A DNA stretch of 64,000 nucleotides, from positions 2,496,001 through 2,560,000 of the forward strand of contig OZ241362.1 of NCBI GenBank assembly GCA_965200315.1, read 5' to 3'. The notes beneath the pieces were generated by a model, which worked only from the letters and a program-made list of their open reading frames with translations, made no database searches and had not been told where the DNA came from. Positions 1-43,776 of this stretch are shown piece by piece. Position 1 is the stretch's first letter. Each line of letters opens with the position of its first letter. The translations under genes and the position numbers were made by a program. This DNA comes from Candidatus Latescibacterota bacterium. Its GTDB lineage: Bacteria; Latescibacterota; UBA2968; UBA8231.

Positions 1-1347
1 GACGACCAAGGCCCTTGGGCCGCCGGCTGTTACGGCAACGCGGAAATCCGCACTCCAGCAATCGACCGCATTGCCCATACGGGTATTCGCTTTGACAATT
101 TCTTCGTCGCAACCCCGGTCTGCTCGCCCAGCCGCGCGAGCTTTTTGACCGGGCGGATTCCCTCGCAGCACGGAGTACACGACTGGATCAGAGAGGGCAA
201 CGTCGGCGCGTCCGCAGCCGCCTATCTCGCCGGCGAGGTGGCTTATACCGACATCCTCGCTGCAAACGGCTGGGTCTGCGGGCTAAGCGGCAAGTGGCAC
301 CTCGGGCACAGCCAACTCGCACAGCACGGCTTTTCACATTGGTACGTGCATCAGCAGGGCGGCGGGCCGTACAACGACGCACCCATGATCCGCGACGGCG
401 AACTGATCACCGAGCCGGGCTACGTGACCACGGCAATCACCAACGACGCGCTGGCGTTTATCGATCGGCATGCCGACGGCGACGCGCCCTTTTACCTAGG
501 CGTCCACTACACCGCGCCGCACAGCCCGTGGACGGGCCACCCGCAGGAAATCGTCGATTCCTACGACAACTGCGCGTTCGACTCCTGTCCGCAGGAAGCG
601 ATCCACCCTTGGGCGGTGGGCCACGCGCTGAGTGAGAACTGCTTGGGCAACCGCGAAATGCTCAAGGGCTATTTCGCGGCGGTGACGGCCATGGACCGCG
701 ACATCGGGCGGATTATCGACAAGCTAGAAGAAAGGGGGCTACGCGAGGCCACGCTGATAGTCTTCGCCAGCGACAATGGCTTTAGCTGCGGCCATCACGG
801 TTTCTGGGGCAAGGGCAACGGCACCTATCCGCCGAACATGTACGAGAATTCGATCAAGGTGCCCTTCGTCGTCAGCCACCCCAGCCGCATACCTGCGGGG
901 CGCGTCCAAGCGGGCATGGTCAGTGCCTACGACTTTATGCCGACCTTGCTCGATTATCTAGAACTACCACTACCCGAGGGCCCCAATTTGCCCGGACAAA
1001 GCGCGCTGCCGCTGTTGTTGGGAGCAGACGACACCGGCCGGCAGGAAGTAGTCATCTACGATGAGTACGGGGCGACGCGGATGATGCGAACCAAGGAGTG
1101 GAAGTACGTCCACCGCTATCCAGATGGGCCGCACGAACTCTACGACCTAGCCAACGACCCGGACGAGCGCACCAATCTGGCGGACGATCCCAGCCAAGCC
1201 AAGCGAATCGGCGAGCTAAAGAGGCGACTGGAAGCGTGGTACAAAAGCTACGCAGTGCCCCAACGCGACGGCCGCCACTTCGCGGTGACTGGCAAGGGGC
1301 AACTCAGGCCGGTCGGCACCGGGACCCAACCTTTCGCGCCGGAGTAG
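1..1347 (+). CDS. Sulfatase (arylsulfatase/choline-sulfatase family), 5'-truncated by window edge
   Basis: Frame is open from base 1 (DDQGPW...). Contains the formylglycine motif CSPSR at ~121-135, plus GKWHLG, SDNG and HELYDL..DP.E..NLA. Confidence 0.93.
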   Translation, partial: DDQGPWAAGCYGNAEIRTPAIDRIAHTGIRFDNFFVATPVCSPSRASFLTGRIPSQHGVHDWIREGNVGASAAAYLAGEVAYTDILAANGWVCGLSGKWHLGHSQLAQHGFSHWYVHQQGGGPYNDAPMIRDGELITEPGYVTTAITNDALAFIDRHADGDAPFYLGVHYTAPHSPWTGHPQEIVDSYDNCAFDSCPQEAIHPWAVGHALSENCLGNREMLKGYFAAVTAMDRDIGRIIDKLEERGLREATLIVFASDNGFSCGHHGFWGKGNGTYPPNMYENSIKVPFVVSHPSRIPAGRVQAGMVSAYDFMPTLLDYLELPLPEGPNLPGQSALPLLLGADDTGRQEVVIYDEYGATRMMRTKEWKYVHRYPDGPHELYDLANDPDERTNLADDPSQAKRIGELKRRLEAWYKSYAVPQRDGRHFAVTGKGQLRPVGTGTQPFAPE

Positions 1348-1348
1348 C

Positions 1349-2194
1349 TTACTCCGGCAACACACTCCGCGCCGGCACAAACCCCAACTCCGCTGCAATC
1401 CGCGCAATATCATACACCGGATCCCGCTCGTGCCCCGCCCGCTCGTAATGCGCCATGTCGATCTTCTCAGCATCTGCCCCATACCAAATCCGCATCAACT
1501 CCGGCACCGTACAGGCCACACAGGCCTGCGTCCCCACTGCGTTCAAAATCCGCACCCCCGCCTTGTGAGCGCTCTCCGCCGCCAGCCGGAAGCACCGCAC
1601 CGCATCGCTCAAATACATACACGAAATCGCCCCCATCCCCCACGGCCCCACCGGCCCCGGCTGCCGTCGCTCAGCTACTCTGTCCTCGGGCCAAATCGAA
1701 GCCAGCCTAATATTGATGAAGTCTAAGTCCTCCCGTTGCCGCGCTAGATAGCGGGTCGTCTCCTCCATCATGTATTTGGAAAAACCGTAGCCGTCGCGGT
1801 CGAGACACGGATGCTCGTCCGACATCGGCAGTTCGAGCGGCCGAAAACGCACCGACTGCATCCCGACCGCCGCGATTGACGAGGCCAATGCAAATTTGCT
1901 GCAACCCCGGTCAATCAGATAGCGCAACAAGCCGTAGGTCCCCATGACATTGACCCGCATGAGATCCGCTTCGGCACCCGCGCCCGTCACCGCCCCCAGA
2001 TGGACCAGCGCATCGAAGTCCCACCGGTCCAACCGGTGCAGATCCTCCAGCCGCGTAAAATCGCCAACCACCACCGCCGCCCCCACGACCTCCGTCGGCT
2101 GGCGCGACAGACAAACCACCTCGTGCTCCGCCGCCATATCCGCGGCCAGCGCCCGACCGATAAAACCACTGGTTCCCGTAATCAATACGCGCAT
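1349..2194 (-). CDS. NAD-dependent epimerase/dehydratase (extended SDR)
   Basis: Starts MRVLITGTSGFIG, with YGFSK catalytic motif. ATG at 2194 follows a GGAGG RBS located inside the duplicated segment. Confidence 0.9.
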   Translation of the reverse strand: MRVLITGTSGFIGRALAADMAAEHEVVCLSRQPTEVVGAAVVVGDFTRLEDLHRLDRWDFDALVHLGAVTGAGAEADLMRVNVMGTYGLLRYLIDRGCSKFALASSIAAVGMQSVRFRPLELPMSDEHPCLDRDGYGFSKYMMEETTRYLARQREDLDFINIRLASIWPEDRVAERRQPGPVGPWGMGAISCMYLSDAVRCFRLAAESAHKAGVRILNAVGTQACVACTVPELMRIWYGADAEKIDMAHYERAGHERDPVYDIARIAAELGFVPARSVLPE

Positions 2195-2506
2195 CTCAAC
2201 CTCCCGGCGGCGCGATCCGTTCCAGTACCAAACCTTCGGGGCGCACAAAATCCTTGTAGCGAACCAAAATTTCCGCCCCATTAATGCTGCGCACAAAACC
2301 CGCCCGCGCCTCCAGCTTCTTCACCTCGATCTCGACCCGATTGGCCCCGCGCCTTATCTCCTCGGCTGCCAAGCGAAAGCGAAACCAGTGCGCCGAAAAA
2401 CCCAACGGGGCTTGCACCGCCATATTTCCAGCGAGCTGTAGGGGAATGGTCAATGCGCGCTCGTCGCTGATTTCGGCTTCAGCGCGGGACAGAACCCGGC
2501 CGTTAA
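2191..2506. repeat. 316-bp direct repeat, copy 1 (orphan duplicate of the 3' end of CDS 4354..5925)
   Basis: Matches 4349..4664 at a constant offset of 2158. I see only two differences: 2412 T vs 4570 C, and 2484 G vs 4642 C. Confidence 0.95.
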
Positions 2507-2515
2507 GTTACGGCC

Positions 2516-3838
2516 TTATGCGGCTTTTGCTTCCGGGTCTTGCAATTCTTCTCTATCGAGATCGCCGTTATCAACAAGGCGTGCGGTAACGGCAAGTGGC
2601 GATACATTGAAGTGCTCGGCGGCATCTTGCTGTTTTTCGTCCGAAAAATCATCGTTCAAAAAAGCCAGCAAAGAATGAATTGGGCAAAGGAGCTCACCAG
2701 CAAAAGCACGCTGCATTTTTTGCCGGTACGTGTACGTGCCGGTCGCCGGATGCAGTAATTCGTTGGGGTCGCCCAAAAGACGATCTACGAGAAGGCGGGC
2801 AATCGCAAATCGACGCCCCTGTTCCCAAGCGGACCTCAGTACAACGCGACCTGTTTTCCGGTTCGCGTCGTCGAGTGCAAAGGCGAGACGCCCCGTTGAG
2901 TCTTGCCTAGATAGAACCTGTTCACTGATGCCGCATAATTCGGCCAGCCTAGTGTTTGGGATAGCATCATCGCCCAAATGTTCCTGCCGACGCAGTTGCT
3001 GCGCAGATCCTACTCCCACCTGCCAAGCGGGTACTTGACTGCTATCGACGTGCTGTGATGTCGAGACGCTTTGCACACCATCGCCAGGGCGCGTGTCAAA
3101 CCCAAACTTTCGCGCCACGTCATGCAACCCCAGCGCGGCTTGGTGATCGTCAGCTACAACTTCCGATATGGCGTCTAGCCCAAGGATGTTGCCCTCCGCG
3201 ATCAGTCGCTCAACCAACTCAGGTTCGGCTTCGTCCGGGTCGAAGCCCAAATAGGCTTCAAATCTTCTATAGAGAGAAATAGCCGGATCCTTCCGTTCGG
3301 AACTTAACTCACTCCATATCGTGTGCAGGTCCGTATTCATATAGGTGCATTCTGCAAGGCGGGTTAGGACACGCCCCACAAAATCATCAATGCCGTCCTC
3401 GAATGTCCAAGCCGGAATGGTCGCTATCCCACCCATCGTATAATGAAGCTGTTCCGTCTGCACTACTTCGGACGGCCTTGCGTTAAAAACAATACGAACG
3501 CCATCCGACTTGATGGTGATGTTCGGCCAGAGCCATCCGCCTCCAATACAGGCTAGATCATGCGCTTCGCTCCAATCCGCGTCTCGGCGGCGCTGTCGCG
3601 CGGGCTCCCAGCGCAGGCGCCACCAATGCCACGCTAACCATTCGGCCAATCTGTATGCCGATAGGTTGGCACCGTTTCGTGGGGTATTCGTCTCGCTGTC
3701 AATGGCTTGGGTAAGGCAGGTCTGACCAACGTGGATGCCGAGTTCTCCCAAAGTCGCTTCGTCCTCAGCCGGCTGGAGCGCGGACTTGGAAACTCGATCG
3801 GCCTCACGTAGCCATCGCGATCTAATCCGTAACGTCAT
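2516..3838 (-). CDS. ImmA/IrrE (peptidase M78)-like protein with degenerate metal-binding motif and uncharacterised N-terminal domain
   Basis: C-terminal GRRFAIARLLVD sits where RxRFTxAHELGH is expected, followed by QRAFAGELLCP and AAEHFNVSPLAV, typical of the ImmA/IrrE fold. ATG at 3838 overlaps the upstream stop (ATGA). Confidence 0.7.
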   Translation of the reverse strand: MTLRIRSRWLREADRVSKSALQPAEDEATLGELGIHVGQTCLTQAIDSETNTPRNGANLSAYRLAEWLAWHWWRLRWEPARQRRRDADWSEAHDLACIGGGWLWPNITIKSDGVRIVFNARPSEVVQTEQLHYTMGGIATIPAWTFEDGIDDFVGRVLTRLAECTYMNTDLHTIWSELSSERKDPAISLYRRFEAYLGFDPDEAEPELVERLIAEGNILGLDAISEVVADDHQAALGLHDVARKFGFDTRPGDGVQSVSTSQHVDSSQVPAWQVGVGSAQQLRRQEHLGDDAIPNTRLAELCGISEQVLSRQDSTGRLAFALDDANRKTGRVVLRSAWEQGRRFAIARLLVDRLLGDPNELLHPATGTYTYRQKMQRAFAGELLCPIHSLLAFLNDDFSDEKQQDAAEHFNVSPLAVTARLVDNGDLDREELQDPEAKAA

Positions 3839-4272
3839 TGGCCGCGTCTTTCCCATTCGCTCCGCACGAACTCGGCAAATCTATCGCCATGCTTCATAGG
3901 ATATCCGTGATATTCACCACGCTCGCGATTAGAAAGTTGAGCCTCATATACTATGCCTTCGGCGGAGACTGCCCACACATTCTGGGGCCAGTCTCCACGT
4001 TGTTGTTCACTGACCATTCCACGACGGATGCCCGATTTGAGCAACTCGGCAGCCTCTCGACAGCAGGTGATTCCAGCTCCATCGCAGATAGTCTTGTCGG
4101 GACGCGGAACTGGTCTGGATAAACCCCAAGCCGCAGGGTTGGATTTATGGTACGGACTGGCCTTGTATCTGGCGTCTTGAGCCATCCGTCCGAGTGTATC
4201 TTTGCTGATCGTACCCAGCAGCGCCACCGTGCTTTTCCTTTTCGTCTTGCTGCGTTTCTGGGGATGCTTCAT
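3835..4272 (-). CDS. Small basic hypothetical protein, possible nuclease-type toxin
   Basis: 145 aa from ATG 4272, with motifs YKASPYHK, WPQNVWAV and VYEAQLSN...YHGYP. Translationally coupled to the downstream gene. Function is inferred. Confidence 0.6.
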   Translation of the reverse strand: MKHPQKRSKTKRKSTVALLGTISKDTLGRMAQDARYKASPYHKSNPAAWGLSRPVPRPDKTICDGAGITCCREAAELLKSGIRRGMVSEQQRGDWPQNVWAVSAEGIVYEAQLSNRERGEYHGYPMKHGDRFAEFVRSEWERRGQ

Positions 4273-4348
4273 AATTCGACCGCGAAAGGGCGGCAAGTAC
4301 CAATAGGGACGGTAAAAGCCGTTTTTTCAAAATAACACCCTTGACGCT

Positions 4349-4664
4349 GCATCTCAACCTCCCGGCGGCGCGATCCGTTCCAGTACCAAACCTTCGGGGC
4401 GCACAAAATCCTTGTAGCGAACCAAAATTTCCGCCCCATTAATGCTGCGCACAAAACCCGCCCGCGCCTCCAGCTTCTTCACCTCGATCTCGACCCGATT
4501 GGCCCCGCGCCTTATCTCCTCGGCTGCCAAGCGAAAGCGAAACCAGTGCGCCGAAAAACCCAACGGGGCCTGCACCGCCATATTTCCAGCGAGCTGTAGG
4601 GGAATGGTCAATGCGCGCTCGTCGCTGATTTCGGCTTCAGCCCGGGACAGAACCCGGCCGTTAA
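4349..4664. repeat. 316-bp direct repeat, copy 2 (in-frame 3' end of CDS 4354..5925 plus following ATG)
   Basis: Near-identical to 2191..2506. Confidence 0.95.
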
Positions 4665-33514: not shown

Positions 33515-36500
33515 CTACCTGAGCAGCAGCATCTTCTTGACCTTGAGAAATTCTCCGCCCACCTGCAAGCGGTACAAATACATCCCCGAAGACAAGCTGT
33601 GGCCGCTGTCATCGGTTGCGTCCCACTCCACTGCGTAGCGACCCGCGCTCTGATGCTCGGCCACCAGCGTCCGCACCGGCTGACCCATTATGTTATAGAC
33701 AGTCAACTCCACGTCTGCCGCCTGCGGCAACGCATACTGGATCGTCGTCGTCGGATTGAACGGGTTCGGGAAGTTGTCCGCCAACGCGAATGCAGTCGGC
33801 CGCGGTTGAATTGCCGCCTTCGCCGCTCTTGGGTCGCTTATCGCGATCTCTACCGAGTCCCCCTCCAGCCCGTCAATCGTACCGATCAGCCTAATGATCT
33901 CGTCGCCTTCCTCCAAGTTGTCGGCTCTTGGATCAACGTGAAAGTTCACCCTCCCTGTTATCGAGCCGGCCATAATCTCAATTTTAGGAGTAAATAACGC
34001 GGCGTAGTCCAAATCGCGCGTGGCGGTGGAAGCGTTATCTATAGACAAACGCACGGTCGCGGCCTCTGCCAACGCCTTGCCGTCCAACGTGGCGGTCACC
34101 GCAATAGTGGTCAAATCGTCATTTTCACTCAACGTGCTCGGGTCCGCCGACAGCGCGATGGACGTACTCGGCGTTTCGTCGTCTCGGATCGCGATGTTGG
34201 TCACTATAGTCTGCCCGGTCGATACGAGCGTGGCCTGCACCCCTATCGCCTCCAAGCCCTCTTCATTATTGTCGTTGATCGGCGTGAGGACCAGCACCGC
34301 CGTCCCCTCGGTAGCGCCGGCCGGAATGGTGATAAGCACTTCGAGATTTACTGTGTAGTCCACATCGCGCGTCGCCTCCGTCCCCTCACTTGGGGCCACA
34401 ATAGCGAGCTGCACGCTCTCGTCTGCCGCCGCGGCGGCCTCCAAGGTAAACGTCAGCGAGACTTCCATCTCCGCAGCGTCCTCGCGGATCATCGCAGGTG
34501 CTGCCATCAGCCCAGCGGCCACAACCATAGGAACCTCCGCAGCGGGATTGACTTCAATGGTGAAGACCAGCGCTGCGCTTTCGCCCGAATCAATGTCGAC
34601 CGCCGTGTACGTAACTTCGACCGCACCGGCGGTGGCTTGCGTAGGCGTACCCGAAAGCGTCCGCGTGGCCGAATTAAACCACAAACCCGCTGGCAGAGCC
34701 GAGACGCTATACGCCGGGTGACAGTCCCTATCCGTAACTTCCGGCAGCACCAAATCGACAATCGCCGTGCCCACAGTGTAGGCCCGGGCGGCAATCGCAG
34801 CGCCCGCAGCAAAGGACAGCACTATCCCTTCCTCAGCTCTTACAGTAATAGCAAAGGACAGCACTGCCGCTTCGCCATCTCTATCGGTCGCCGTGTACGT
34901 AATTTCGACCGCACCGGCGGTGGCTTGCGCAGGCGTACCCGAAAGCGTCCGCGTGGCCGCGTCAAATGACAAGCCCGCTGGCAGAGCCGAGACCTGGTAC
35001 GTCAGATCGCCATCGCCGGTAGCCTCCGGCAGCACCAAACTGGTAATCGCCGTGCCCACAGTGTAGGCCCGGGCGGCAATCGCAGCACCCGCAGCAAAGG
35101 AAGGCACAGTGCCCTCGCTGCCGTCTCGCAGCGTTACATCTACCGTGCCGACCGTCAAATTGACCGCTTCGCCATCGGCATATTGGGCGGAGACTTGCCG
35201 GTTGGCATACGGCACCGTCAGCCTAATTTTCTCTTCGCCTTCCTCAGCCCCGTCGTCAATCGGGATGATGGTGATCGTCGTCGTCCCCGACACCGCGCCG
35301 GCCGGAATCGTCAGAGGACGCAGGACGGCCGTGTAGTCTACATCGCGCGTCGCCTCGGCCACATCGACGACCTCGTTATCCGCGTTTGTATTTTTGGGAT
35401 CGGGGTCAATGATCAGCAGCACGATCACGTCTTGGTCAAACACCCTCCCGTCCAATGTGCCGGTCACCGCAACATCGGTCCTACCAGCCCCCTCGCTTAG
35501 CCTAGTCGGAGTCGCCGTCAGCGAGATGCTCGTGCTGTTCGCGTCGTCGTCGGCGATGGCTATCGTTTTAATCGCCGATACGTCGCCGACTGCGATCTGT
35601 ATGTATATCAAACCGCGCGCAACCTCTGCGCTGTCGTTGTAGGGAGTAATGGTGAAGGTCGTCGTTCCCTCAGCCGCACCGGCTGGGATGATAAACGGCG
35701 CAAAAGACAGCGTGTAATGCACATCGCGCGTCGGCGCGCTCGTCACCGCACCCCCCGACGGCAACCTCTCACCTACTGACAACACACGCAGCCGCACCGT
35801 CTCGTCCTTAGCCAAGGCATTTGTCAATGAGACTTTCAACTCGATGGTCGTCTCACCGGCGTCCTCGCGCACACTCTCTTGACTAAGCGTAATGGCATCG
35901 GCCGTGGCAGCGACCCCTTTCGTCATTTTGAGATCCAACGGGCGAATCGTTAGCCCATTTGCAATCTGTATCCCCTCATTATTCGCATCACTATCGGGCG
36001 TAGCCACCCGAATCGTGCCCGGCAGCCGGTTTCTAGGAGTGATGATAATCGTCGCCGTCCCCGACACTTTATTGCGCGGAATCGTCAGCGGCGCCAGCGT
36101 CACCGTGTAGTCCAAATCGCGCTGCGCCTCGCGATTGTCCTTGGTCGCATCCGCATCGTCGATAGTGCCGTCGCCATTGGTATCGGCGTTGGGATTGGCC
36201 CCCAAGTCGGGATGATCGCCAATGGTCAAGACGAAACTTGTCGCCTGTCTTAGTACCTTGCCATTTAGGGTCGCCGTCACGGCGATCTCGGTCGCACCAT
36301 CGAACCTATTTAGCTCGACAATATCGGCCGACAGAGCGATGTTTTGGCTGTCCTTGTCGTCGTCAATAAGCGTGATCGTCGCCGACTCGACCGTCTTAAT
36401 GCCAGCATTGCCGCGGATCTCGACAGGAAGATCTGTGTCAACGACATCATTGTTAATCGGGGTGAGGGTGATCGTAGCCGTGGCACTTTTCTCGCCAGCC

Positions 36501-36781
36501 GGAATCCTGAGCAGGGTCAGCCTTATGTAGAAGCGACTATTAAGCCCCTCATGGGAGACACTCAAGAGCACATACGTATCCGTATCCGCCGCTGTGTCAT
36601 CCGTAGTTTGGGCTGTTACAGCGATATCGGTCGCGCCGGCATCCTCGCGTACGCTCTCGGGATTTACCGACAGTTTTAAGTCCTGCGCCGCAGCCTCCCC
36701 AGCCCACCCCAACACCAAACCAACAGCCAGCAGCCAAGGCACACAGGCCAGACGTTGCATAAACAACTTTGTATATAACAT
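33515..36781 (-). CDS. Large secreted protein: Calx-beta/Ig-like repeats, two putative Ig (He_PIG) domains, C-terminal FlgD-Ig/T9SS-type sorting domain
   Basis: Signal peptide ending EAAAQ; repeated ATRDVDY...TIPAG...TITP.DD; LPAGLSFDAATRTLSGTP; C-terminal FALADNFPNPFNP...SSGMYLYRL...KKMLLLR. Confidence 0.85.
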   Translation of the reverse strand: MLYTKLFMQRLACVPWLLAVGLVLGWAGEAAAQDLKLSVNPESVREDAGATDIAVTAQTTDDTAADTDTYVLLSVSHEGLNSRFYIRLTLLRIPAGEKSATATITLTPINNDVVDTDLPVEIRGNAGIKTVESATITLIDDDKDSQNIALSADIVELNRFDGATEIAVTATLNGKVLRQATSFVLTIGDHPDLGANPNADTNGDGTIDDADATKDNREAQRDLDYTVTLAPLTIPRNKVSGTATIIITPRNRLPGTIRVATPDSDANNEGIQIANGLTIRPLDLKMTKGVAATADAITLSQESVREDAGETTIELKVSLTNALAKDETVRLRVLSVGERLPSGGAVTSAPTRDVHYTLSFAPFIIPAGAAEGTTTFTITPYNDSAEVARGLIYIQIAVGDVSAIKTIAIADDDANSTSISLTATPTRLSEGAGRTDVAVTGTLDGRVFDQDVIVLLIIDPDPKNTNADNEVVDVAEATRDVDYTAVLRPLTIPAGAVSGTTTITIIPIDDGAEEGEEKIRLTVPYANRQVSAQYADGEAVNLTVGTVDVTLRDGSEGTVPSFAAGAAIAARAYTVGTAITSLVLPEATGDGDLTYQVSALPAGLSFDAATRTLSGTPAQATAGAVEITYTATDRDGEAAVLSFAITVRAEEGIVLSFAAGAAIAARAYTVGTAIVDLVLPEVTDRDCHPAYSVSALPAGLWFNSATRTLSGTPTQATAGAVEVTYTAVDIDSGESAALVFTIEVNPAAEVPMVVAAGLMAAPAMIREDAAEMEVSLTFTLEAAAAADESVQLAIVAPSEGTEATRDVDYTVNLEVLITIPAGATEGTAVLVLTPINDNNEEGLEAIGVQATLVSTGQTIVTNIAIRDDETPSTSIALSADPSTLSENDDLTTIAVTATLDGKALAEAATVRLSIDNASTATRDLDYAALFTPKIEIMAGSITGRVNFHVDPRADNLEEGDEIIRLIGTIDGLEGDSVEIAISDPRAAKAAIQPRPTAFALADNFPNPFNPTTTIQYALPQAADVELTVYNIMGQPVRTLVAEHQSAGRYAVEWDATDDSGHSLSSGMYLYRLQVGGEFLKVKKMLLLR

Positions 36782-36830
36782 TACTTGATCTCCCTGAGAA
36801 GAGTGGTTGACTATTGGTCTGTAATATAAA

Positions 36831-36866
36831 AAATGGGGTCTCAAACCGCAGTTTGAGACCCCATTT
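36831..36866 (-). terminator. Intrinsic terminator after second large secreted gene
   Basis: AAATGGGGTCTCAAAC-CGCA-GTTTGAGACCCCATTT, with a T-run on the minus strand. Confidence 0.8.
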
Positions 36867-36890
36867 CGTTAACGGGCTATGTAGTGATTG

Positions 36891-39800
36891 CTACTTGAGC
36901 AGCAGCATCTTCTTGATTTCGAGGAACTCCCCGCCCACCTGCAAGCGGTAGAAATACATCCCCGAAGACAAGCTATGCCCACTGTCATCGGTCGCGTCCC
37001 ACTCCATGACATACCGACCCGCGCTCTGATGCTCAGCCACCAGCGTCCGAACCGGCTGACCAACTACATTATAGACGGTCAGCTCCACATCCGCCGCCTG
37101 CGGCAACGCATACTGGATCGTCGTCGCTGGGTTGAACGGGTTCGGGAAGTTGTCCGCCAACGCGAAGGCGGTCGGCAGCGTCTGCAACGATAGCAACGCG
37201 GTCGCGCCGTTGGCGTCCGTAACCGTGTACGTATAGGCAGTTTCGGCCGCCGCGCTCGGCGTACCCGAAATCGTCCGCGTGGCCGCGTCAAACGTCAGGC
37301 CCGCCGGCAAGGCCGGCGAAATACTATACGTCAGCGGCGCAGTGCCGCCCAAAGCCTCCGGCAGCACGAGGGCTTCCACCCGCTGGCCAACGATGAATTC
37401 GCGGATTTCAGCCAAGTCGTGCGAGGCCATCGGAACGACTTTGCTAGAACCGAAAAAGTCGAAGAAATCGCCAAACGACAGCTTCGCATTGACCTTAATG
37501 GTGAAAGTCAACGCCGCGGCCTTCCCATCGCTATCGACCACCGTGTAGATGATGGAGACCGCTTCGTCAGTCACTGTCGAAGGAGCGCCCGAAATCGTCC
37601 GCGTGGCCGCGTCAAACGACAAGCCCGCCGGCAGGGCCGAGATGCTGTACCTCAGCGGTAGAGTGCCGCCCAAAGCCTCCGGCAGCACGAGCGGGGGAAT
37701 CGGCGTCCCAGCGGTGTACGATTGGTTTGGGATCGTGGTGCCGTCGGCGAAGGCGAGGGTCGAATCACCCGGATCATCCGGATCAGGCGTCATCGGTGCT
37801 TGGTCGCCGAGGGTGATCTCTGCCTCATCTCCCATCAATCCGTTAATTGCACCAATCAGCTTGATGGTCTCGTTGCCCTCCGCTAGATCGTCGTCCACTA
37901 TGCGGATCCTAAGCTGCGTGGCCCCCATTATCGAGCCGGCTGGAATCTCAATCAGTGGATTGGCGAATAGTGCGGCATAGTCCACATCGCGCGACGCTGT
38001 TGACACCACATCAATGGCCACGACCACAGTTGCGTTCTCGGCCAACGCCTTGCCATCCAACGTGGCGGTTACCGTAACCTCAACCTCACCGCTTCCTTCA
38101 ATTATCGTGTGCGGATTCACCGACAGCTCAATGGAAGTACTCGGCGTCTCGTCGTCGGCGATCTCGATATTCGTCAATAGCATCGCACCAGATGAGAATG
38201 TAGCCCGCACACCTAACGCTCTCACGCTATCCATCTCGGTGTTGTTAATAGGAGCGAGGGTAAGCGTTGTCGTCCCAACGGTAGCACCGGCCGGAATGGT
38301 GACAACCGATCCCAGTTTCGCAGTGTAGTCCACATCGCGCACAGCCGGCGTACCTTCGCTTGGACCTACAATCGTGAACGTCACTTGCTCGGCTGTGCCC
38401 CTAGCCGCGTCCAAGGTCAAGGTCAGCAAAATTTGCGTCGCCTCAGCGTCCTCGCGGATTGACGAAAGATCCGCTGTCAATTCAGCATTCGTAGCTGCAA
38501 TCGGCGTCTCAGCAGTATTGACCGAGATAGAAAAAATCAACGCGGTGGCATTCTTTTCGCCGTCAATGACCGTGTAGATGATGTTGACTGGGGCATCGGT
38601 CACTGCCAAAGGCGTACCCGAAAGCGTCCGCGTTGAATCGTCAAACGCCAAGCCCGCGGGCAGCGTCGAGATGCTGTATGTCAAGTCGCCCGTGCCGCCC
38701 GTAGCTGCCGGCAGTACGAGCGGCTCAATCGCCGTTCCAACTGTGTACACTTGGGCGGAGATCGTATCGGCAGCGGTAAAGGCCGGGCGCGTCGGATCAC
38801 TAGGCGGAGGCTGCTCATCTTCTTCGATGGCATCTTTCAGCGTTATCCTCGCTGGATCAACCGTCAGCTCTTGGAGGTCCCCGTCATCGTCTTCGGCTGC
38901 AGGCAGTTTAGACGACAGCGTCCCCAAGCCGATCTTCTCGCCATCGTCCTTGAGGTCGTCGGCGGTAGGGGTAATGGTGATCTTCTCCATCCCCGACACC
39001 GAGCCAGCCGGAATCACCAAAGGAAGGAGCGAAGCGGTGTAATCTACATCGCGCGTCGCCGCTTTGTCATCATCGTTCACCTTGCCATCGCCGTTGATAT
39101 CGTCGTTAATGACCAACACTACGACCACGTTGTCTTTGAACTCCTTCCCGCTCAAGGTGCCGGTCACCGTAACCTCGGTCGCTCCCTCGCCCTCGCTTAT
39201 CTCGGTCGGATTCACCTCTAGCGTGATCGAATCGCTCGTCGTGTCGTCATCAGTAATCAGGATGCCTGTGGAGAGGTCTTGGTCTCCAACCCTCGCTTTC
39301 ACCTTGAACGCCCGCGGCTGGTCTCCTTTGTTGTTGTCAACGGGAGTGACCATGATCGTCGTCGTCCCTTCTGTCTCGCCCTTCGGGATGGTGAGCGACG
39401 GCACTTCCGCAGTGTAATCCACATCGCGCGTCGCATTGACCGCACTGTCGAAAGCGTCGCCTAGATCGTCGCTCGCATCCTCAATAGTGAACCGCACCGT
39501 CTCGTCGCTCAACAAGGCGTTCTGTAAGGAAACTTTCAGCATAATCTCCCTCGGCCCAGAGTCCTCGCGTATTGAGAAAGGAGTCGCTGTCAGCCCTTTA
39601 ATCGCTTTAGCCGGCTCGGGCGTTATCTCGATTGCCTTACGCTCAACCGTTATGGGCTGTTCGTCGTCATTAGAAAGGTCGGCGTCATCAGGAGCCTCCA
39701 ACCAGATGTTGCCGGATCCTACATCTTTGGGCCGGATGGTAATCGTCGTCGTCCCTGACACCCTCCGGTCAGGAATGGTTATCGTAGAAAGCGTCGCTGA

Positions 39801-41207
39801 ATAGTCCACATCACGCGTCGCGCTATTTTCACCTGTCTCATCGATAACCAAGGAAAAACTCAAGTCTTTTCTTAGCGTCTTTCCATCCAGAGTAGCCTTC
39901 ACTTCGATGTCGGTCGCACCACCCTTCTGGCTTATATCGGCATCGGAAAACTCGAGATTGATCTTCGTGCTGGGCTTGTCAGTATCAATCAATGTAATGG
40001 ACACAGGCTTGACTTTTTCACCAGAAGCGGCCGTACCCTCAATAGTAATAATAAGATCTGAAACGCCGGTTTCATCCGGAACGCTGGTTCCATCCGGAAC
40101 GGGGATAAAGTTGATCTGCCCTTCGGCCTCCTTCTTTCCCTCCTCAATCACGAGTGTAGGTAGCGTTATGCGGAAGCGGCTATTGAGCCCCGTAACGGAT
40201 TGGAGGCTCAAGATCACATAGGTGTCTTTGGACTCCGCAGTATCATCGCTAACTTTGACTTTCACCGTGATATCTTGCGGCTCGGCGTCTTCGCGTACAC
40301 TACTGGAGCTTACCGATAGTACGTAATCAAATGAACGCATCACGGTAACGGTAACGGAGAGATCACTGTCATAAGAGAGCTCAAACTGGTCGTCAACCTC
40401 GAGCGTATGATTATCAGGCAACGTGAACACCAAGGTCGCACTAGGACCAAAAGACGAAAGGCCATTAACAATCTGCCAGCGGTAATCATCGGTGGTCCCC
40501 ACACTCGACAGGGCTACAGCCTCACTCCCAGCACCATCGGGATCGAGAGACAACACCACCGGATTTGTGACAGACGGATCAGACGGATCTGTGCCAAACT
40601 TGGCATCATCCGTGACGTCGAAACGGAAGCTATTGTCCGTATCAATCATCCCGATGTCACTCAACTGGACCGTCAACGTATTTTCCGACAGAGTCGCGCT
40701 GGCAGTCGCACCCGACGGAATCGCCGACTTATTAATTGTCACTTCAACAGAGAGAGCACCGCCATAAGAGAGTTCAAACTGGTCGTCAGCCACGAGCGTA
40801 TGATCATCAGGCAACGTGAACACCAAGGTCGCACTAGGACCAAAAGACGAACCAGTAGGAATCTGCCAGCGGCGATTATTCGGGTTATCCAAAAGCGGCA
40901 GGGGTGTAGCCGCCTGACCCGTATTCTCAGCACCATCGGGATCGAGAGACAACTCCGGATCTGTGCCAAACTTGTCATCATTCGTGCCGTCGAACGTGAC
41001 GTCGAAACGGGAGCCAGCGGACCAGCGAATGGTCCCAATATTGCTTAATTCAACCGTCAACGTATTGCCCGCCAGGGTCGCGCTGCCAGTCGCACTCGAT
41101 GGCGTTTGCGCTGCTGCTTCCCCTACCCAGCCCAAGCAAGCGAGCAGCAACCAAGGCACACAGGCCAAACGCTGCATCTGAATCAATGATTTTGTACGTA
41201 ATAGCAT
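36891..41207 (-). CDS. Large secreted paralogue: two novel N-terminal repeats, Calx-beta/Ig-like repeats, three He_PIG domains, FlgD-Ig/T9SS-type C-terminal domain
   Basis: Same signal peptide (QRLACVPWLL...GEAAAQ) and core as 33515..36781; EF-hand-like DINGDGKVNDDD; C-terminal NFPNPFNP domain. Confidence 0.85.
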   Translation of the reverse strand: MLLRTKSLIQMQRLACVPWLLLACLGWVGEAAAQTPSSATGSATLAGNTLTVELSNIGTIRWSAGSRFDVTFDGTNDDKFGTDPELSLDPDGAENTGQAATPLPLLDNPNNRRWQIPTGSSFGPSATLVFTLPDDHTLVADDQFELSYGGALSVEVTINKSAIPSGATASATLSENTLTVQLSDIGMIDTDNSFRFDVTDDAKFGTDPSDPSVTNPVVLSLDPDGAGSEAVALSSVGTTDDYRWQIVNGLSSFGPSATLVFTLPDNHTLEVDDQFELSYDSDLSVTVTVMRSFDYVLSVSSSSVREDAEPQDITVKVKVSDDTAESKDTYVILSLQSVTGLNSRFRITLPTLVIEEGKKEAEGQINFIPVPDGTSVPDETGVSDLIITIEGTAASGEKVKPVSITLIDTDKPSTKINLEFSDADISQKGGATDIEVKATLDGKTLRKDLSFSLVIDETGENSATRDVDYSATLSTITIPDRRVSGTTTITIRPKDVGSGNIWLEAPDDADLSNDDEQPITVERKAIEITPEPAKAIKGLTATPFSIREDSGPREIMLKVSLQNALLSDETVRFTIEDASDDLGDAFDSAVNATRDVDYTAEVPSLTIPKGETEGTTTIMVTPVDNNKGDQPRAFKVKARVGDQDLSTGILITDDDTTSDSITLEVNPTEISEGEGATEVTVTGTLSGKEFKDNVVVVLVINDDINGDGKVNDDDKAATRDVDYTASLLPLVIPAGSVSGMEKITITPTADDLKDDGEKIGLGTLSSKLPAAEDDDGDLQELTVDPARITLKDAIEEDEQPPPSDPTRPAFTAADTISAQVYTVGTAIEPLVLPAATGGTGDLTYSISTLPAGLAFDDSTRTLSGTPLAVTDAPVNIIYTVIDGEKNATALIFSISVNTAETPIAATNAELTADLSSIREDAEATQILLTLTLDAARGTAEQVTFTIVGPSEGTPAVRDVDYTAKLGSVVTIPAGATVGTTTLTLAPINNTEMDSVRALGVRATFSSGAMLLTNIEIADDETPSTSIELSVNPHTIIEGSGEVEVTVTATLDGKALAENATVVVAIDVVSTASRDVDYAALFANPLIEIPAGSIMGATQLRIRIVDDDLAEGNETIKLIGAINGLMGDEAEITLGDQAPMTPDPDDPGDSTLAFADGTTIPNQSYTAGTPIPPLVLPEALGGTLPLRYSISALPAGLSFDAATRTISGAPSTVTDEAVSIIYTVVDSDGKAAALTFTIKVNAKLSFGDFFDFFGSSKVVPMASHDLAEIREFIVGQRVEALVLPEALGGTAPLTYSISPALPAGLTFDAATRTISGTPSAAAETAYTYTVTDANGATALLSLQTLPTAFALADNFPNPFNPATTIQYALPQAADVELTVYNVVGQPVRTLVAEHQSAGRYVMEWDATDDSGHSLSSGMYFYRLQVGGEFLEIKKMLLLK

Positions 41208-41254
41208 TACTCTATCTCCCCAAGTTAAGAGCAATTACTGGTGGTTTTAGAATC

Positions 41255-41289
41255 GTGGGATAGGGCTTCGCGTTGAAGCCCTATCCCAC
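41255..41289. terminator. Hairpin after third large secreted gene
   Basis: GTGGGATAGGGCTTC-GCGTT-GAAGCCCTATCCCAC. Confidence 0.7.
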
Positions 41290-41310
41290 CAACTCGCTGT
41301 GCAGTGGGTG

Positions 41311-43776
41311 TTACTTGAGCAGCAGCATCTTCTTGACTTCGAGGAACTCGCCGCTCGCCTCCAAGCGGTAGAAATACATCCCCGACGACAAGCTGTGCCC
41401 GCTGTCGTTGGTCGCGTCCCACTCCACGACATAGCGACCGGCACTCTGATGCTCGGCGACCAGCGTCCGCACCGGCTGACCCAGCACATTATACACCGTC
41501 AACGCCACGTCCGCCGCCTGCGGCAACGCATACTGAATCGTCGTCGCCGGGTTGAACGGATTCGGATAGTTGTCGGCCAACGAGAACACCGCCGGCCGCG
41601 TCTGCACCTGCACCGGAGCCGGCCGCGCCAAGCGGTTGAAGCCAAACGCGCTGTCATACGTCTGGGTGTCGGTGACCTCGATGCGCGTACTCTCGATCTC
41701 CACGGTCGGACGGAAAACCAAGCTCAGGGCCACCGCGCCGTCGGCGACGAGGGCGCCGTGGGTGGCCACCGTCAACACACCGGCTTGGTCGGCCAACACC
41801 TGCGGCGTAGCCAACGCGCTACCCCCCAGCGGCTGATCGGTTCGCACCTCGACGAACGCCAGCTTGTCGGCCTCATACTGCACCTGCAAGCCGTAGCCCT
41901 TGAGCGCGGTAAAGTCCGCCAAGCGCACATCGAGGACAAAGTCCTCACCCACGTTGGGCAGCGCTGTCCGCGCATCCAAGTACAGCCGCGCATCGGCATT
42001 CAGACCCGCGAACATCGGCACACGCTTACCCGCCGCCGCCGTGCTGCGACCAAAGTTGTCGGCAAACACGAAGAAGTCGTCGAAGTCAATCGCGGCGTTC
42101 GGTGCCAGGTCAAACGCCGGATCAAACCCAGCGTCCGCAGCCGTCAAACCAAAGAAATCAGCTAGAATGAAGAAGTCGTCAAAGCCCACGCGATCGTCCG
42201 CGCCGAACAGACCGAAGATCGCACGACCTTCGCTATCCACCACGCTGTTGCGCACGGCTATGGCCGTCTGTTCGACATCGGAATCCGTCTCGTTGTCCAA
42301 GTCGTAGGGCCGCACCTGATAGGTGTAGCGCACACCATTGAGCGCCGTCTCATCGACAAACGAGACTGTGCCGCGCGCAACTTGCCCGATCATAACGAAC
42401 TCGTCTTCGCCCGCAGCGCGGCGATAGATGCTGTAGCCATAGACGCCAAGGATTGGCTCGTAAGGAACCGGGCCGGTGGCTCCGGCAACGCCCTGCAAGA
42501 TCTGGTCGGACGGTGAGCGCATCCACCTCAGGACGACGCGGCCGCCCTCGTCATTGGGCGCATCCAAGGCACTGAATGACGGTACGGGAAACGGCGGGAT
42601 ATCATCGATAGCGCGAACCGCCTCTTCTGTAACAATGACTTCCGACAGTTGCACCCCACCCTCGACGCTCTGCATCCTCGGGGCCACACCTTGCGCGAAA
42701 GCGAGGGCTTCTGGCAGCAGCGAGGCGAACACCGGCGCGTCGCCTGCTTGCGCCGCTTCCCTGCTGGCCATCAGCGTCTCGGCCATCAGCTCGTAGGGCT
42801 GGTTCAGGCTTTCAGCATCAACGAACGCGGCCTTAGCAGCCTCAACAACGAGCGTGGTGCGACCGTCGCGCTCAGCGGCAATGCCCCAACGGGTGGAGAC
42901 ATTATCGAGCGTGGCGACGATGGCGCGACCCATCTCCACGCCCGGCACGGCATCCACCATGGCCCAAGGAACCATTTCATTGTTCTCCGCAGGTATTTCG
43001 CGGAAGATGCGATAGCCGTCTAGCGTCTTGTGATCGTCCGACAGGTCCCAAGACAGCAGCAAAAAGCCGCCTTGGTCGCCGAGGCCATCGGCACCCTTGT
43101 AGTCTTCGGCCACCAACGCGTTGGGAGCATCCAACGGCGGCAGCACCACCTCAATGCTGATCGCTGGCAGTGGAGCACTCGCGCCATTAGCGTCCGTAAC
43201 CGTGATCGCGACTGTGGCCGTACCTACCTCGGAGGGCGTACCCGAAATCGTCCGCGTGGCCGCGTCGTACGATACGCCAGCGGGAAGCCCTGACACACTG
43301 AGTGTATAAGGCGGGGTTCCCCCTCCCAACTGCAATATAGAGTCGTCCGGCAACGTCACCGGCTCTATAGCCGTGCCTACCTCATACGTCAAAACACCTG
43401 TTGAGGCATCCGGCGCCTGCACCTCCGACGCCTGCACCTCAATGGTAAAAGGCGGCAGCGACACACTAGCACTGACGGCGTCCGTAACAGTGTAGGTGTA
43501 CTCTGTGGCAGGGGCCGCCACTAGCGGCGTACCCGAAATCGTCCGCGTGGCCGCGTCAAACGCCAAGCCCTCAGGCAAAGCTGGCGTGAGGCTATACGCA
43601 AACGGCGGCGTACCGCCCGTGATCTCTGGCAGCGTCACCGGCTCTATAGCCGTGCCTACCTCATACGTCAGCACTACGGCATCCTGTGCATCGGCCGAGG
43701 TGGTATGAACACTGGGAAAGAAACCGCTTGCCCCTAAAAGAGCTAGCAGAAAAAAACTCGAAAACGCTCGTTTCAT
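41311..43776 (-). CDS. Secreted protein: two He_PIG domains, FN3-like domains, dockerin/EF-hand-like pair, cohesin-like domain, FlgD-Ig/T9SS-type C-terminal domain
   Basis: Signal peptide; FDAATRTISGTP twice; GYSIYRR...SFVD...YTYQVR; VGFDDFFILADFFG and IDFDDFFVFADNFG; LKGYGLQVQYE; NYPNPFNP. Confidence 0.82.
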   Translation of the reverse strand: MKRAFSSFFLLALLGASGFFPSVHTTSADAQDAVVLTYEVGTAIEPVTLPEITGGTPPFAYSLTPALPEGLAFDAATRTISGTPLVAAPATEYTYTVTDAVSASVSLPPFTIEVQASEVQAPDASTGVLTYEVGTAIEPVTLPDDSILQLGGGTPPYTLSVSGLPAGVSYDAATRTISGTPSEVGTATVAITVTDANGASAPLPAISIEVVLPPLDAPNALVAEDYKGADGLGDQGGFLLLSWDLSDDHKTLDGYRIFREIPAENNEMVPWAMVDAVPGVEMGRAIVATLDNVSTRWGIAAERDGRTTLVVEAAKAAFVDAESLNQPYELMAETLMASREAAQAGDAPVFASLLPEALAFAQGVAPRMQSVEGGVQLSEVIVTEEAVRAIDDIPPFPVPSFSALDAPNDEGGRVVLRWMRSPSDQILQGVAGATGPVPYEPILGVYGYSIYRRAAGEDEFVMIGQVARGTVSFVDETALNGVRYTYQVRPYDLDNETDSDVEQTAIAVRNSVVDSEGRAIFGLFGADDRVGFDDFFILADFFGLTAADAGFDPAFDLAPNAAIDFDDFFVFADNFGRSTAAAGKRVPMFAGLNADARLYLDARTALPNVGEDFVLDVRLADFTALKGYGLQVQYEADKLAFVEVRTDQPLGGSALATPQVLADQAGVLTVATHGALVADGAVALSLVFRPTVEIESTRIEVTDTQTYDSAFGFNRLARPAPVQVQTRPAVFSLADNYPNPFNPATTIQYALPQAADVALTVYNVLGQPVRTLVAEHQSAGRYVVEWDATNDSGHSLSSGMYFYRLEASGEFLEVKKMLLLK

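Follow-up and report, generated by a model that had tools for sequence, protein, structure and literature searches.

A foreign two-gene cassette lies in a 64,000-nucleotide (nt) stretch of contig OZ241362.1 from a Candidatus Latescibacterota bacterium (the window; all positions are window positions, and L-numbers denote related loci in other records). Its small gene encodes a putative toxin, and the overlapping big gene encodes a putative antitoxin or regulator (Table 1). The reading that we favor, with moderate confidence, is that this is a toxin-first cassette, type II toxin-antitoxin-like or anti-phage, in which an N-terminal clamp of the big protein neutralizes an effector of new fold and a dead ImmA-type domain is left as a regulatory or sensing remnant. 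The same two genes travel together across many phyla, the zinc peptidase motif is missing throughout the big-protein family, and the two proteins are predicted to bind each other through conserved residues.

Gene Structure and Coding Evidence

A first inspection of the sequence (the original prediction) had proposed two minus-strand open reading frames (ORFs) joined by an ATGA overlap at 3835-3838. This arrangement is borne out: the plus strand reads tcat at this site, with the big-gene ATG at 3838..3836 and the small-gene TGA at 3837..3835. The motifs that had been quoted are also all present, namely GRRFAIARLLVD, QRAFAGELLCP, AEHFNVS, LAEWLAWHWWRLRWEP, GGGWLWPNI, PYHK, and YHGYP. In alignments, the starts at 4272 and 3838 match those of homologues. 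Longer ORFs beginning at TTG 4296 and ATG 3856 were considered and rejected, as homologues give them no backing. Both genes are under purifying selection, with ratios of nonsynonymous to synonymous substitution rates of 0.23-0.28 for each of them in three pairwise comparisons.

Scans of Pfam, NCBIfam, PADLOC, and PHROGs place neither protein in any family, which upholds the suggestion that the pair lies outside the families in these libraries. Relatives are nonetheless readily found. At E <= 0.001 there are 584 relatives of the big protein among 8000 candidates scored and 298 relatives of the small protein among 318 candidates scored. No precomputed Pfam domain is attached to any listed homologue of either protein, and the source names, which are few, nearly all read 'hypothetical protein'.

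Pairing and Spread

Contigs from one genome per species were scanned for relatives of the big protein, 600 motif-matching stretches were examined, and the best 80 loci were kept. At least 526 loci, out of the 600 stretches examined, encode a big-protein relative. They are distributed over Latescibacterota, Gemmatimonadota, Acidobacteriota, Binatia, Dehalococcoidia, Spirochaetia, Desulfovibrionaceae, and Alpha-, Beta-, and Gammaproteobacteria. The small gene lies directly upstream on the same strand in 73 of the best 80 loci, and two of the seven misses are cuts at contig ends. When the flanking ORFs of the 80 loci are clustered, these two genes alone recur; the other clusters that occur in at least seven loci are antisense ORFs over the module. 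The same clusters hold no conserved, separate XRE repressor gene beside the big gene that might serve as a substrate.

Spacing and divergence of the two genes are also tied together. A possible big-gene start codon falls -28 to +2 nt from the small-gene stop in all 65 intact loci, and a 4-nt overlap like that in the window occurs in 38 of the 65; the script that measured this spacing took the start nearest the stop and so favors small gaps. Pairwise distances among the small proteins correlate with those among the big proteins across these 65 loci (Mantel r = 0.77, a value reached by 0 of 999 permutations), which reflects co-inheritance of the two genes. The counts of paired loci, the absence of other recurrent genes, and this correlation confirm the proposed co-occurring, horizontally mobile two-gene module.

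Domain Organization of the Big Protein

The AlphaFold model of the big protein has a mean predicted local distance difference test score (pLDDT) of 84.6 and can be divided into four parts. The first two make up the N-terminal 250 residues, for which profile, sequence, and PDB fold searches find no known family. The third part, a short helical bundle at residues ~271-312, is a possible helix-turn-helix (HTH) just before the M78-like part. Among 25 family members, this region draws matches to HTH_DeoR in four, HTH_Tnp_ISL3 in three, and HTH_17 in three, with a best E value of 0.0011. The earlier observation of no obvious XRE HTH is therefore not confirmed in that form; on these weak and scattered matches, an HTH here is possible.

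The fourth part shows a weak resemblance to the ImmA/IrrE (M78) proteins. Weak matches to Peptidase_M78 recur in 15 of 22 family sequences at full length and in 18 of 25 C-terminal pieces (best E = 2.4e-4). Among the PADLOC profiles, the best match, itself weak, is RmrA (E = 0.0059, residues 277-424), and capP also matches (E = 0.0084). The top PDB fold match is CapP (7t5t; prob 1.00, template modeling score 0.26/0.39 over 171 columns). IrrE (3dti/3dte) and PprI (8sln) follow with prob 0.51-0.72, and these three proteins are the sole related set among the top structural matches. The order of elements, which is a hairpin, an 'active-site' helix, and a second helix with ..AFA.E.L.P, fits what we take to be the typical layout of the M78 family.

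HExxH is absent from all 81 big-protein family sequences, anywhere in the chain and down to 33% identity. Its equivalent position reads AR[LF][LI].[DE], within a conserved RRF..AR[LF][LI].[DE] in which the Arg and the acidic residue are kept, and a later C-terminal motif reads RQK.QRAFA.E.L.P. If the two are placed by helix order, then both His residues of HExxH give way to a conserved Arg and Asp/Glu, which are Arg348 and Asp352 in the window protein, and a Gln replaces the third ligand. Judging from these alignments, the family appears to have lost its metal site at its origin and to have retained the ImmA/IrrE scaffold. The big protein is not a zinc peptidase, because it has neither HExxH nor the Glu that would be the third ligand. 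The proposal of an ImmA/IrrE-like scaffold with its metal site gone can accordingly be extended to the whole family, given the weak but repeated M78 signal, the CapP and IrrE folds, and the 81 sequences without HExxH.

A second M78-like match in L075 was considered as a further domain candidate and rejected; it is a decayed second copy of the big-gene family. This frameshifted fragment (L075 592-1063) retains the C-terminal motifs and lies 5 kb upstream of the intact module.

The Small Protein

The small-protein model (pLDDT 79) shows a basic tail that is disordered, a pair of conserved loops, and a helix/three strands/helix core. At ten positions, all 66 sequences compared carry the same residue: Y36, H42, C63, P96, E110, Y121, H122, G123, Y124, and W140. 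Five more (K43, R57, K60, S88, and W100) are nearly invariant in the same set. The invariant His/Glu/Tyr/Cys pattern looks enzymatic. A profile of the small protein gathers 875 cluster representatives at 50% identity; among the best 150 of these, lengths are mostly 100-190 amino acids (aa), and the longest are 297, 232, and 222 aa.

Attempts to assign this family to a known fold were negative. There is no credible match in Pfam, NCBIfam, PADLOC, or PHROGs, nothing in the PDB by sequence or by profile, and no hit at E <= 0.001 in fold searches of the PDB and BFVD (best prob 0.35), and a protein atlas search returns unnamed clusters only. The original prediction had likened the His motifs to those of small RNase toxins and anticipated a nuclease-like fold. 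Because no sequence or fold search recognizes the small protein, the RNase suggestion is unsupported, and neither the motif comparison nor the nuclease fold has support from these searches.

Several specific candidates were also discarded. For a barnase/T1-type 'YHEY', HEPN Rx4-6H, GIY-YIG, a His-Me finger, and ADP-ribosyltransferase triads, either the needed residues are unconserved or a fold match is absent. A search for longer proteins with a small-protein part gave ten, and the three that were examined are read-throughs of the small and big genes of the frameshift type rather than polymorphic toxins.

Predicted Complex of the Two Proteins

The small and big proteins are predicted to form a complex with a score of 0.71, compared with 0.01 for the best control, in agreement with the idea that the pair binds. 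Scores this high were obtained for 116 of 157 solved complexes and for 2 of 215 mismatched pairs, counts that are only rough here because custom alignments were used. Separate runs share at least 95% of their contacts, and the partner has a pLDDT of at least 81. Taken as a model, this result supports binding between the two proteins.

The predicted interface has 120-136 contacts. They involve residues 10-213 of the big protein and residues 1-14, 39-44, 56-66, 107-115, and 122-135 of the small protein, including the conserved H42, K60, C63, E110, H122, and Y124. On the big-protein side, the contacting residues include the invariant GGGWLWP loop and the Trp helix. Individual big-protein residues at positions 100-103 contact positions 59-61, 110, and 124-127 of the small protein at the same time, so the conserved residues of the small protein may form one site under the loop. 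A loop placed over this conserved site would be the picture expected of an antitoxin that occludes an active site.

These contacts also bear on the original idea that a peptidase fold gates the small protein without proteolysis. The dead scaffold agrees with a nonproteolytic role, but the predicted contact runs through the Trp-rich N-terminal half (residues 10-213). Since the contact is made by this new half, the dead peptidase fold is probably not the direct gate of the small protein.

The same interface might instead belong to an obligate two-subunit machine, such as a defense or DNA-processing enzyme that needs both chains. The small protein would then be harmless alone, and the complex would be the working form. 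We judge this unlikely, even though a large interface of invariant residues from both chains also fits a composite site, and even though tight translational coupling, strict co-inheritance, related cassettes that have no common autoregulatory leader, and retention at one Dehalococcoidia housekeeping locus despite 67-73% nucleotide identity would all be natural for such an enzyme. Read from the contact list alone, the interface buries the conserved site of the small protein and does not extend it. The nearest described architecture is moreover a toxin-antitoxin pair, and a big gene without an intact small gene occurs in 6 of 77 loci compared with 0 of 77 for the reverse, in a sampling that is biased as discussed below.

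Relation to Described Systems

The closest counterpart is RosmerTA, which pairs diverse toxins (RmrT) outside the recognized families with an HTH-ImmA Zn-peptidase antitoxin (RmrA) and is anti-phage, according to two reports (PMC10440598, bioRxiv 10.1101/2022.05.11.491447). In the NetFlax network, the ImmA/Rosmer antitoxin node D25 is toxin-first in 58% of its systems and lies in the phage-defense zone, and the ImmA hub often comes with a small N-terminal HTH (PMC10440598). Two plasmid proteins of the present family were compared with NetFlax entries, and neither appears among the rows covered. With these systems our cassette shares a two-gene operon, a larger ImmA-like partner with a possible HTH, a putatively toxin-first order, a location on mobile DNA, and adjacent co-directional genes that travel together (73 of the best 80 loci). 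It differs from RosmerTA in three respects. The Zn-peptidase motif described for RmrA is missing in all 81 big proteins, the big protein adds a new N-terminal domain of ~260 residues that is the predicted toxin contact, and the putative toxin family is not in PADLOC.

Likeness to the ImmA/IrrE (PprI)/CapP proteins (Peptidase_M78, COG2856) is confined to the C-terminal ~110 residues and consists of the weak M78 matches and the structural matches. Unlike those proteins, the big protein has neither HExxH nor the Glu ligand, and its M78-like domain is C-terminal in a chain of 440 aa. Xre-COG2856 modules offer another comparison. Makarova, Wolf, and Koonin reportedly described them in 2009 as mobile two- or three-gene units in which an HTH and COG2856 protein accompanies varied small toxins, and their proteins are said to keep the metalloprotease motif. 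The big protein of the cassette differs from these in its N-terminal Trp-rich domain, and its partner belongs to a different family. The pair had been put forward as new. The combination of a toxin with an ImmA-type antitoxin follows the RosmerTA and Xre-COG2856 pattern, and the architecture is not wholly new; it departs from that pattern in the dead peptidase, the predicted clamp, and the putative toxin family.

Gene Loss and the Polarity of the Pair

Among the 77 loci that are not cut by a contig end, both genes are intact in 68, the small gene is damaged or absent beside an intact big gene in six, and both are damaged in three. A damaged big gene beside an intact small gene is found in 0 of the 77. 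The six small-gene losses comprise three frameshifts, one remnant, and two cases without trace, L060 and L067, where the big gene stands alone. This decay pattern fits a small gene that encodes the toxin and a big gene that encodes the antitoxin.

Reversed polarity, in which the big protein would be the effector or toxin and its small, basic partner the antitoxin or a DNA-binding regulator, is the least probable of the alternatives that we weighed. It would agree with gene order, since the small gene is first here and antitoxin-first is the commonest order in toxin-antitoxin pairs overall (PMC10440598). The Lys/Arg-rich tail of the small protein could also bind DNA, and many invariant acidic and basic residues occur in the uncharacterized domain of the big protein. 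However, the orphan big genes at L060 and L067 suggest that the big protein is tolerated alone, and the invariant His/Glu/Tyr/Cys residues of the small protein form a pattern that looks catalytic. In RosmerTA, furthermore, it is the ImmA-type protein that acts as the antitoxin, and its deletion was unobtainable according to the same reports (PMC10440598, bioRxiv 10.1101/2022.05.11.491447).

Foreign Origin and Insertion between Long Direct Repeats

The cassette is foreign to its host. The G+C content at third codon positions is 0.53-0.55 in the cassette genes versus 0.69-0.79 in five host genes, and a Gemmatimonadota protein is 77% identical to the window protein, whereas the window flanks match a Latescibacterota record. 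The insert occupies 2507-4348 (1842 nt) between 316-nt direct repeats that are 99% identical. Just two genes lie inside, and there is no transposase or integrase between the repeats. The repeats derive from two host genes, X, which has no Pfam match at E <= 0.001, and Y, which encodes an NAD-dependent epimerase. X and Y were formerly translationally coupled neighbors, and duplication of the repeat keeps both of them intact. The neighbors in the X cluster are sulfatase, epimerase, Gfo/Idh/MocA oxidoreductase, and major facilitator superfamily (MFS) transporter genes.

The same insertion is carried by another Latescibacterota bin (L013/L015), with ~270 nt deleted inside its downstream repeat copy. 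In this bin, L013 1-660 and L015 5440-6527 represent the same locus as the window, with flanks that are 88-90% identical and a cassette that is ~94% identical; the cassette is thus more alike than the flanks. In L015, ~340 nt of the small gene are deleted.

Repeats of this kind are found at other loci as well. Direct repeats of 50 nt or more were sought within 1.2 kb to either side of the module, and positions of equal size in the same loci served as controls. Of the 70 loci that could be tested, 11 have such repeats (64-792 nt long, 69-99.5% identical), compared with 5 of 131 control positions (one-sided Fisher p = 0.004). Repeats flank the module in L020 and L051 as well.

The shared unit is nearly confined to the two ORFs. 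Between the window and L001, whose cassette is 87% identical, homology sets in 3 nt ahead of the start codon and ends 31 nt past the stop. Because it begins only 3 nt before the start, no promoter moves with the cassette. The leader is not common to the window and the L001 cassette, the closest at another locus. A sigma-70-like match at 4329-4357 on the minus strand (TTGAGA, 17 nt, TG-TATTTT) crosses the junction of repeat and leader and would be a hybrid promoter; the promoter scan gave 2 matches versus 1.3 expected, no commoner than in shuffled sequence. Rfam and tRNA scans of the region and of the window are empty.

Downstream of the big gene, a 3' tail is common to the cassettes of L001 (7327-7357), L002, and L040 over 31-44 nt. 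From its tenth base (2506 downward), this tail is the same as an internal stretch of X at the repeat start (2472-2515 versus 4620-4664). It may be a scrap of X carried by earlier copies, or insertion may have relied on it as a stretch of homology.

Other cassettes occur in similar settings. A DUF3800 gene lies between 1038-nt repeats (98.7% identical) at L038 2045-5326, directly upstream of a module that has its own 141-nt repeats. At L077 3062-13209, a DUF2806 gene lies between repeat units, and at L026 2799-8155 a 1.6-kb segment is in tandem, with the module inside the second copy and accompanied by its own 293-nt repeat. L077, L026, and L056 (1-9383) all contain nested repeated host segments with different cassettes between them, and these three loci look like hot spots of recurrent duplication and insertion. 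Since unrelated cassettes in L038 and L077 bear the same signature, the signature is not specific to the module.

A similar mode of gene entry has been described as insertion with long target duplication. According to Furuta, Abe, and Kobayashi (2010, PMC2853133), it involves restriction-modification genes of all types, generates repeats of 46-423 bp, and has an unexplained mechanism. The window cassette agrees with the features that these authors use for such insertions in being an insert of <20 kb with no mobility gene and a repeat of >30 bp. Like the restriction-modification insertions in PMC2853133, it is a compact module that has no transposase or integrase and is bounded by host-sequence direct repeats of varying length. 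It differs from the cases presented there, which have an empty site in a sister genome, in that the window insertion is judged from its repeats alone. A limited literature search found no report of a long target duplication for a toxin-antitoxin-like pair.

The flanking repeats could be taken to mean that the cassette encodes its own insertion machinery, with the small protein as a nickase or nuclease, the big protein as a DNA-binding or targeting factor, and the whole as a minimal transposable unit. The enrichment over controls, together with the repeats in the window, L020, and L051, a shared unit of nearly exactly two ORFs, the lack of any transposase or integrase inside the repeats, and a small protein with a basic tail and a His/Glu/Lys site would all be compatible with this idea. 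We nevertheless consider it highly improbable. The same signature surrounds the unrelated DUF3800 and DUF2806 cassettes, no such repeat is present in 59 of the 70 loci, some control positions have repeats, and neither protein resembles a recombinase or transposase by fold or profile. Because PMC2853133 describes the signature for restriction-modification genes of all types, the insertion process is probably host-driven or generic.

A more speculative version connects the repeats to the effector. Here the pair would be a self-spreading addiction module in which a pseudo-ImmA sensor of a ligand (for example single-stranded DNA or a phage product) frees a new-fold toxin from its Trp-rich clamp, and the freed activity, directed at DNA, would itself drive insertion with long target duplication. 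We regard this combination as improbable.

Genomic Neighborhood and Retention

Enrichment in defense islands had been anticipated, and the association with defense genes is at most mild. Of 72 flanking ORFs, nine match PADLOC models (E <= 1e-10). DISARM DrmC/DrmD and several candidate systems are among these matches, and one of the nine is a generic oxidoreductase. In the other half of the flanking ORFs, 5 of 70 are of restriction-modification, GmrSD, or Druantia type by Pfam. These shares are descriptive and have no genome-wide baseline, which limits the link to a mild one. The nine PADLOC neighbors thus give weak support to the anticipated enrichment, and the largely housekeeping character of the neighbors, described below, goes against it.

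Copies of the module family are present on eight plasmid records. On the Massilia (L081 2522-2947) and Tistrella (L082 2382-2960) plasmids, the small gene lies upstream of the big gene. The Massilia record annotates the small gene as 80 aa only, a truncated form, and the Tistrella gene table, which is known to be incomplete, omits it. The Massilia copy is located between dptH and a patatin-like phospholipase gene. On an Acidithiobacillus caldus plasmid (L083 3001-3669), only the N-terminal ~180 residues are left of a big-gene homologue; an ISL3-family transposase gene ends just upstream, and IscB and N-6 DNA methylase genes are nearby.

In the Dehalococcoidia bins L042, L043, and L050, the module occupies one housekeeping locus, and matching flanks are found in L046, L048, and L059. 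A FAD-dependent oxidoreductase gene is on one side of this locus, and a glycine-cleavage P-protein gene is on the other (L042/L043). The bins that share the locus have diverged to 67-73% nucleotide identity. Since the module remains at the same locus despite this divergence, it has been long retained and not just recently transferred.

Elsewhere in the window, three tandem paralogues of 1109, 1447, and 821 aa are encoded at 33515-43776 on the minus strand. They contain He_PIG Ig-like repeats and a C-terminal sorting domain of the FlgD-Ig/type IX secretion type, and their internal repeats are 65-87% identical.

Proposed Mechanism and Its Weak Points

The small protein would be an effector enzyme whose invariant Tyr, His, Lys, Arg, Cys, and Glu residues come together in one site, with a basic N-terminal tail that is likely to bind nucleic acid. 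The big protein would neutralize it stoichiometrically through its N-terminal half. In the predicted arrangement, the GGGWLWP loop and the Trp-rich helix would plug the conserved site, and an acidic face of the helical domain would hold the basic tail. The C-terminal part, with its possible HTH and M78-like domain, may be descended from antitoxins of the ImmA/RmrA type, and it could now act as a regulator or signal-binding module that controls expression or release of the toxin. A small, selfish, promoter-poor cassette near the size of its two ORFs would move between phyla, and it could land with a long target duplication.

Several observations weigh against this reading. The small protein has no match to a known toxin, nuclease, or other family, and its label as a toxin is drawn from context. 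In the divergent copy on the Tistrella plasmid, two of the otherwise invariant residues, H122 and Y124, are replaced by K and W. The kinship of the big protein with M78 also depends on modest scores. The window protein itself reaches 16.4 bits in full length and 19.3 bits for the C-terminal part, below the 22-bit gathering cutoff of Peptidase_M78; the fold match to CapP 7t5t has an E value of 0.017; and PDB profile searches with the full big protein and with its C-terminal domain return no M78 protein. The placement of ARLLVD on HExxH is based on predicted helix order and on the spacing to a helix of the 'E..AN.FA..LL.P' type.

The polarity evidence is biased, because the big protein was used both to find the loci and to rank them, which leaves those with a damaged big gene underrepresented. 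Among the six cases of a broken small gene, three involve one frameshift each; two of these three come from genome-bin records of chromosome scale, and some of the frameshifts may be assembly errors. Close cassettes that have no common promoter or operator are unusual for an autoregulated toxin-antitoxin operon. As for a role in defense, housekeeping functions predominate among the immediate neighbors, such as ilvC, ilvD, the enolase, acetate kinase, and glycine-cleavage genes, and an HlyD/AcrB pair, and no relatives were found in 50,697 phage records.

Table 1. Features of the cassette and its insertion site in the window
Feature	Residues	Position	Strand	Remarks
Host gene X	523 aa	4354..5925	minus	
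Upstream repeat copy		4349..4664		Last ~300 nt of host gene X, TGA, ATG plus one base of gene Y
Leader		4273..4348	minus	76 nt, from upstream repeat copy to small-gene start
Small gene	145 aa	4272..3835	minus	Putative toxin
PYHK motif, small protein		4155..4144	minus	
YHGYP motif, small protein		3912..3898	minus	
N-terminal tail, small protein	1-14			Basic, Lys/Arg-rich
Core, small protein	71-144			Helix/three strands/helix
Big gene	440 aa	3838..2516	minus	Putative antitoxin/regulator
N-terminal half, big protein	1-250	3089..3838	minus	Predicted contact surface for small protein
N-terminal domain, big protein	1-142			Strand-rich, with Trp-rich helix
Trp-rich helix	64-79	3649..3602	minus	
GGGWLWP loop	99-105	3544..3524	minus	
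Helical domain, big protein	143-250			
Possible HTH	~271-312	2903..3028	minus	Short helical bundle; weak, scattered profile matches
ImmA/IrrE (M78)-like domain	~319-425	2564..2884	minus	No metal site
ARLLVD		2800..2783	minus	Expected HExxH position on active-site helix
RQKMQRAFAGELLCP			minus	Includes QRAFAGELLCP (2713..2681); corresponds to helix with third metal ligand
3' tail		2485..2515	minus	Past big-gene stop; hairpin with 6-bp stem, then cassette-shared sequence
Downstream repeat copy		2191..2506		3'-end fragment of X, then true start of Y (ATG 2194..2192)

Implications

If the favored reading is correct, then a large multi-phylum family, with at least 526 loci and 875 small-protein clusters, has so far had no family in the libraries that we scanned, and it would bring with it an uncatalogued toxin fold and chemistry. 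Current annotation misses or shortens the small gene, for example in two plasmid records. The big protein would be a clear case of a zinc peptidase scaffold that is kept as a pseudo-enzyme inside an antitoxin, with neutralization assigned to a separate, dedicated domain that has a predicted interface. Should the improbable self-spreading version also hold, it would provide a first mechanistic handle on the mode of gene mobility described for restriction-modification genes. For the cassette as we read it, the signature of long target duplication would be widened from restriction-modification genes to a toxin-antitoxin-like cassette, and this would back the view that addictive modules share an entry route into genomes.

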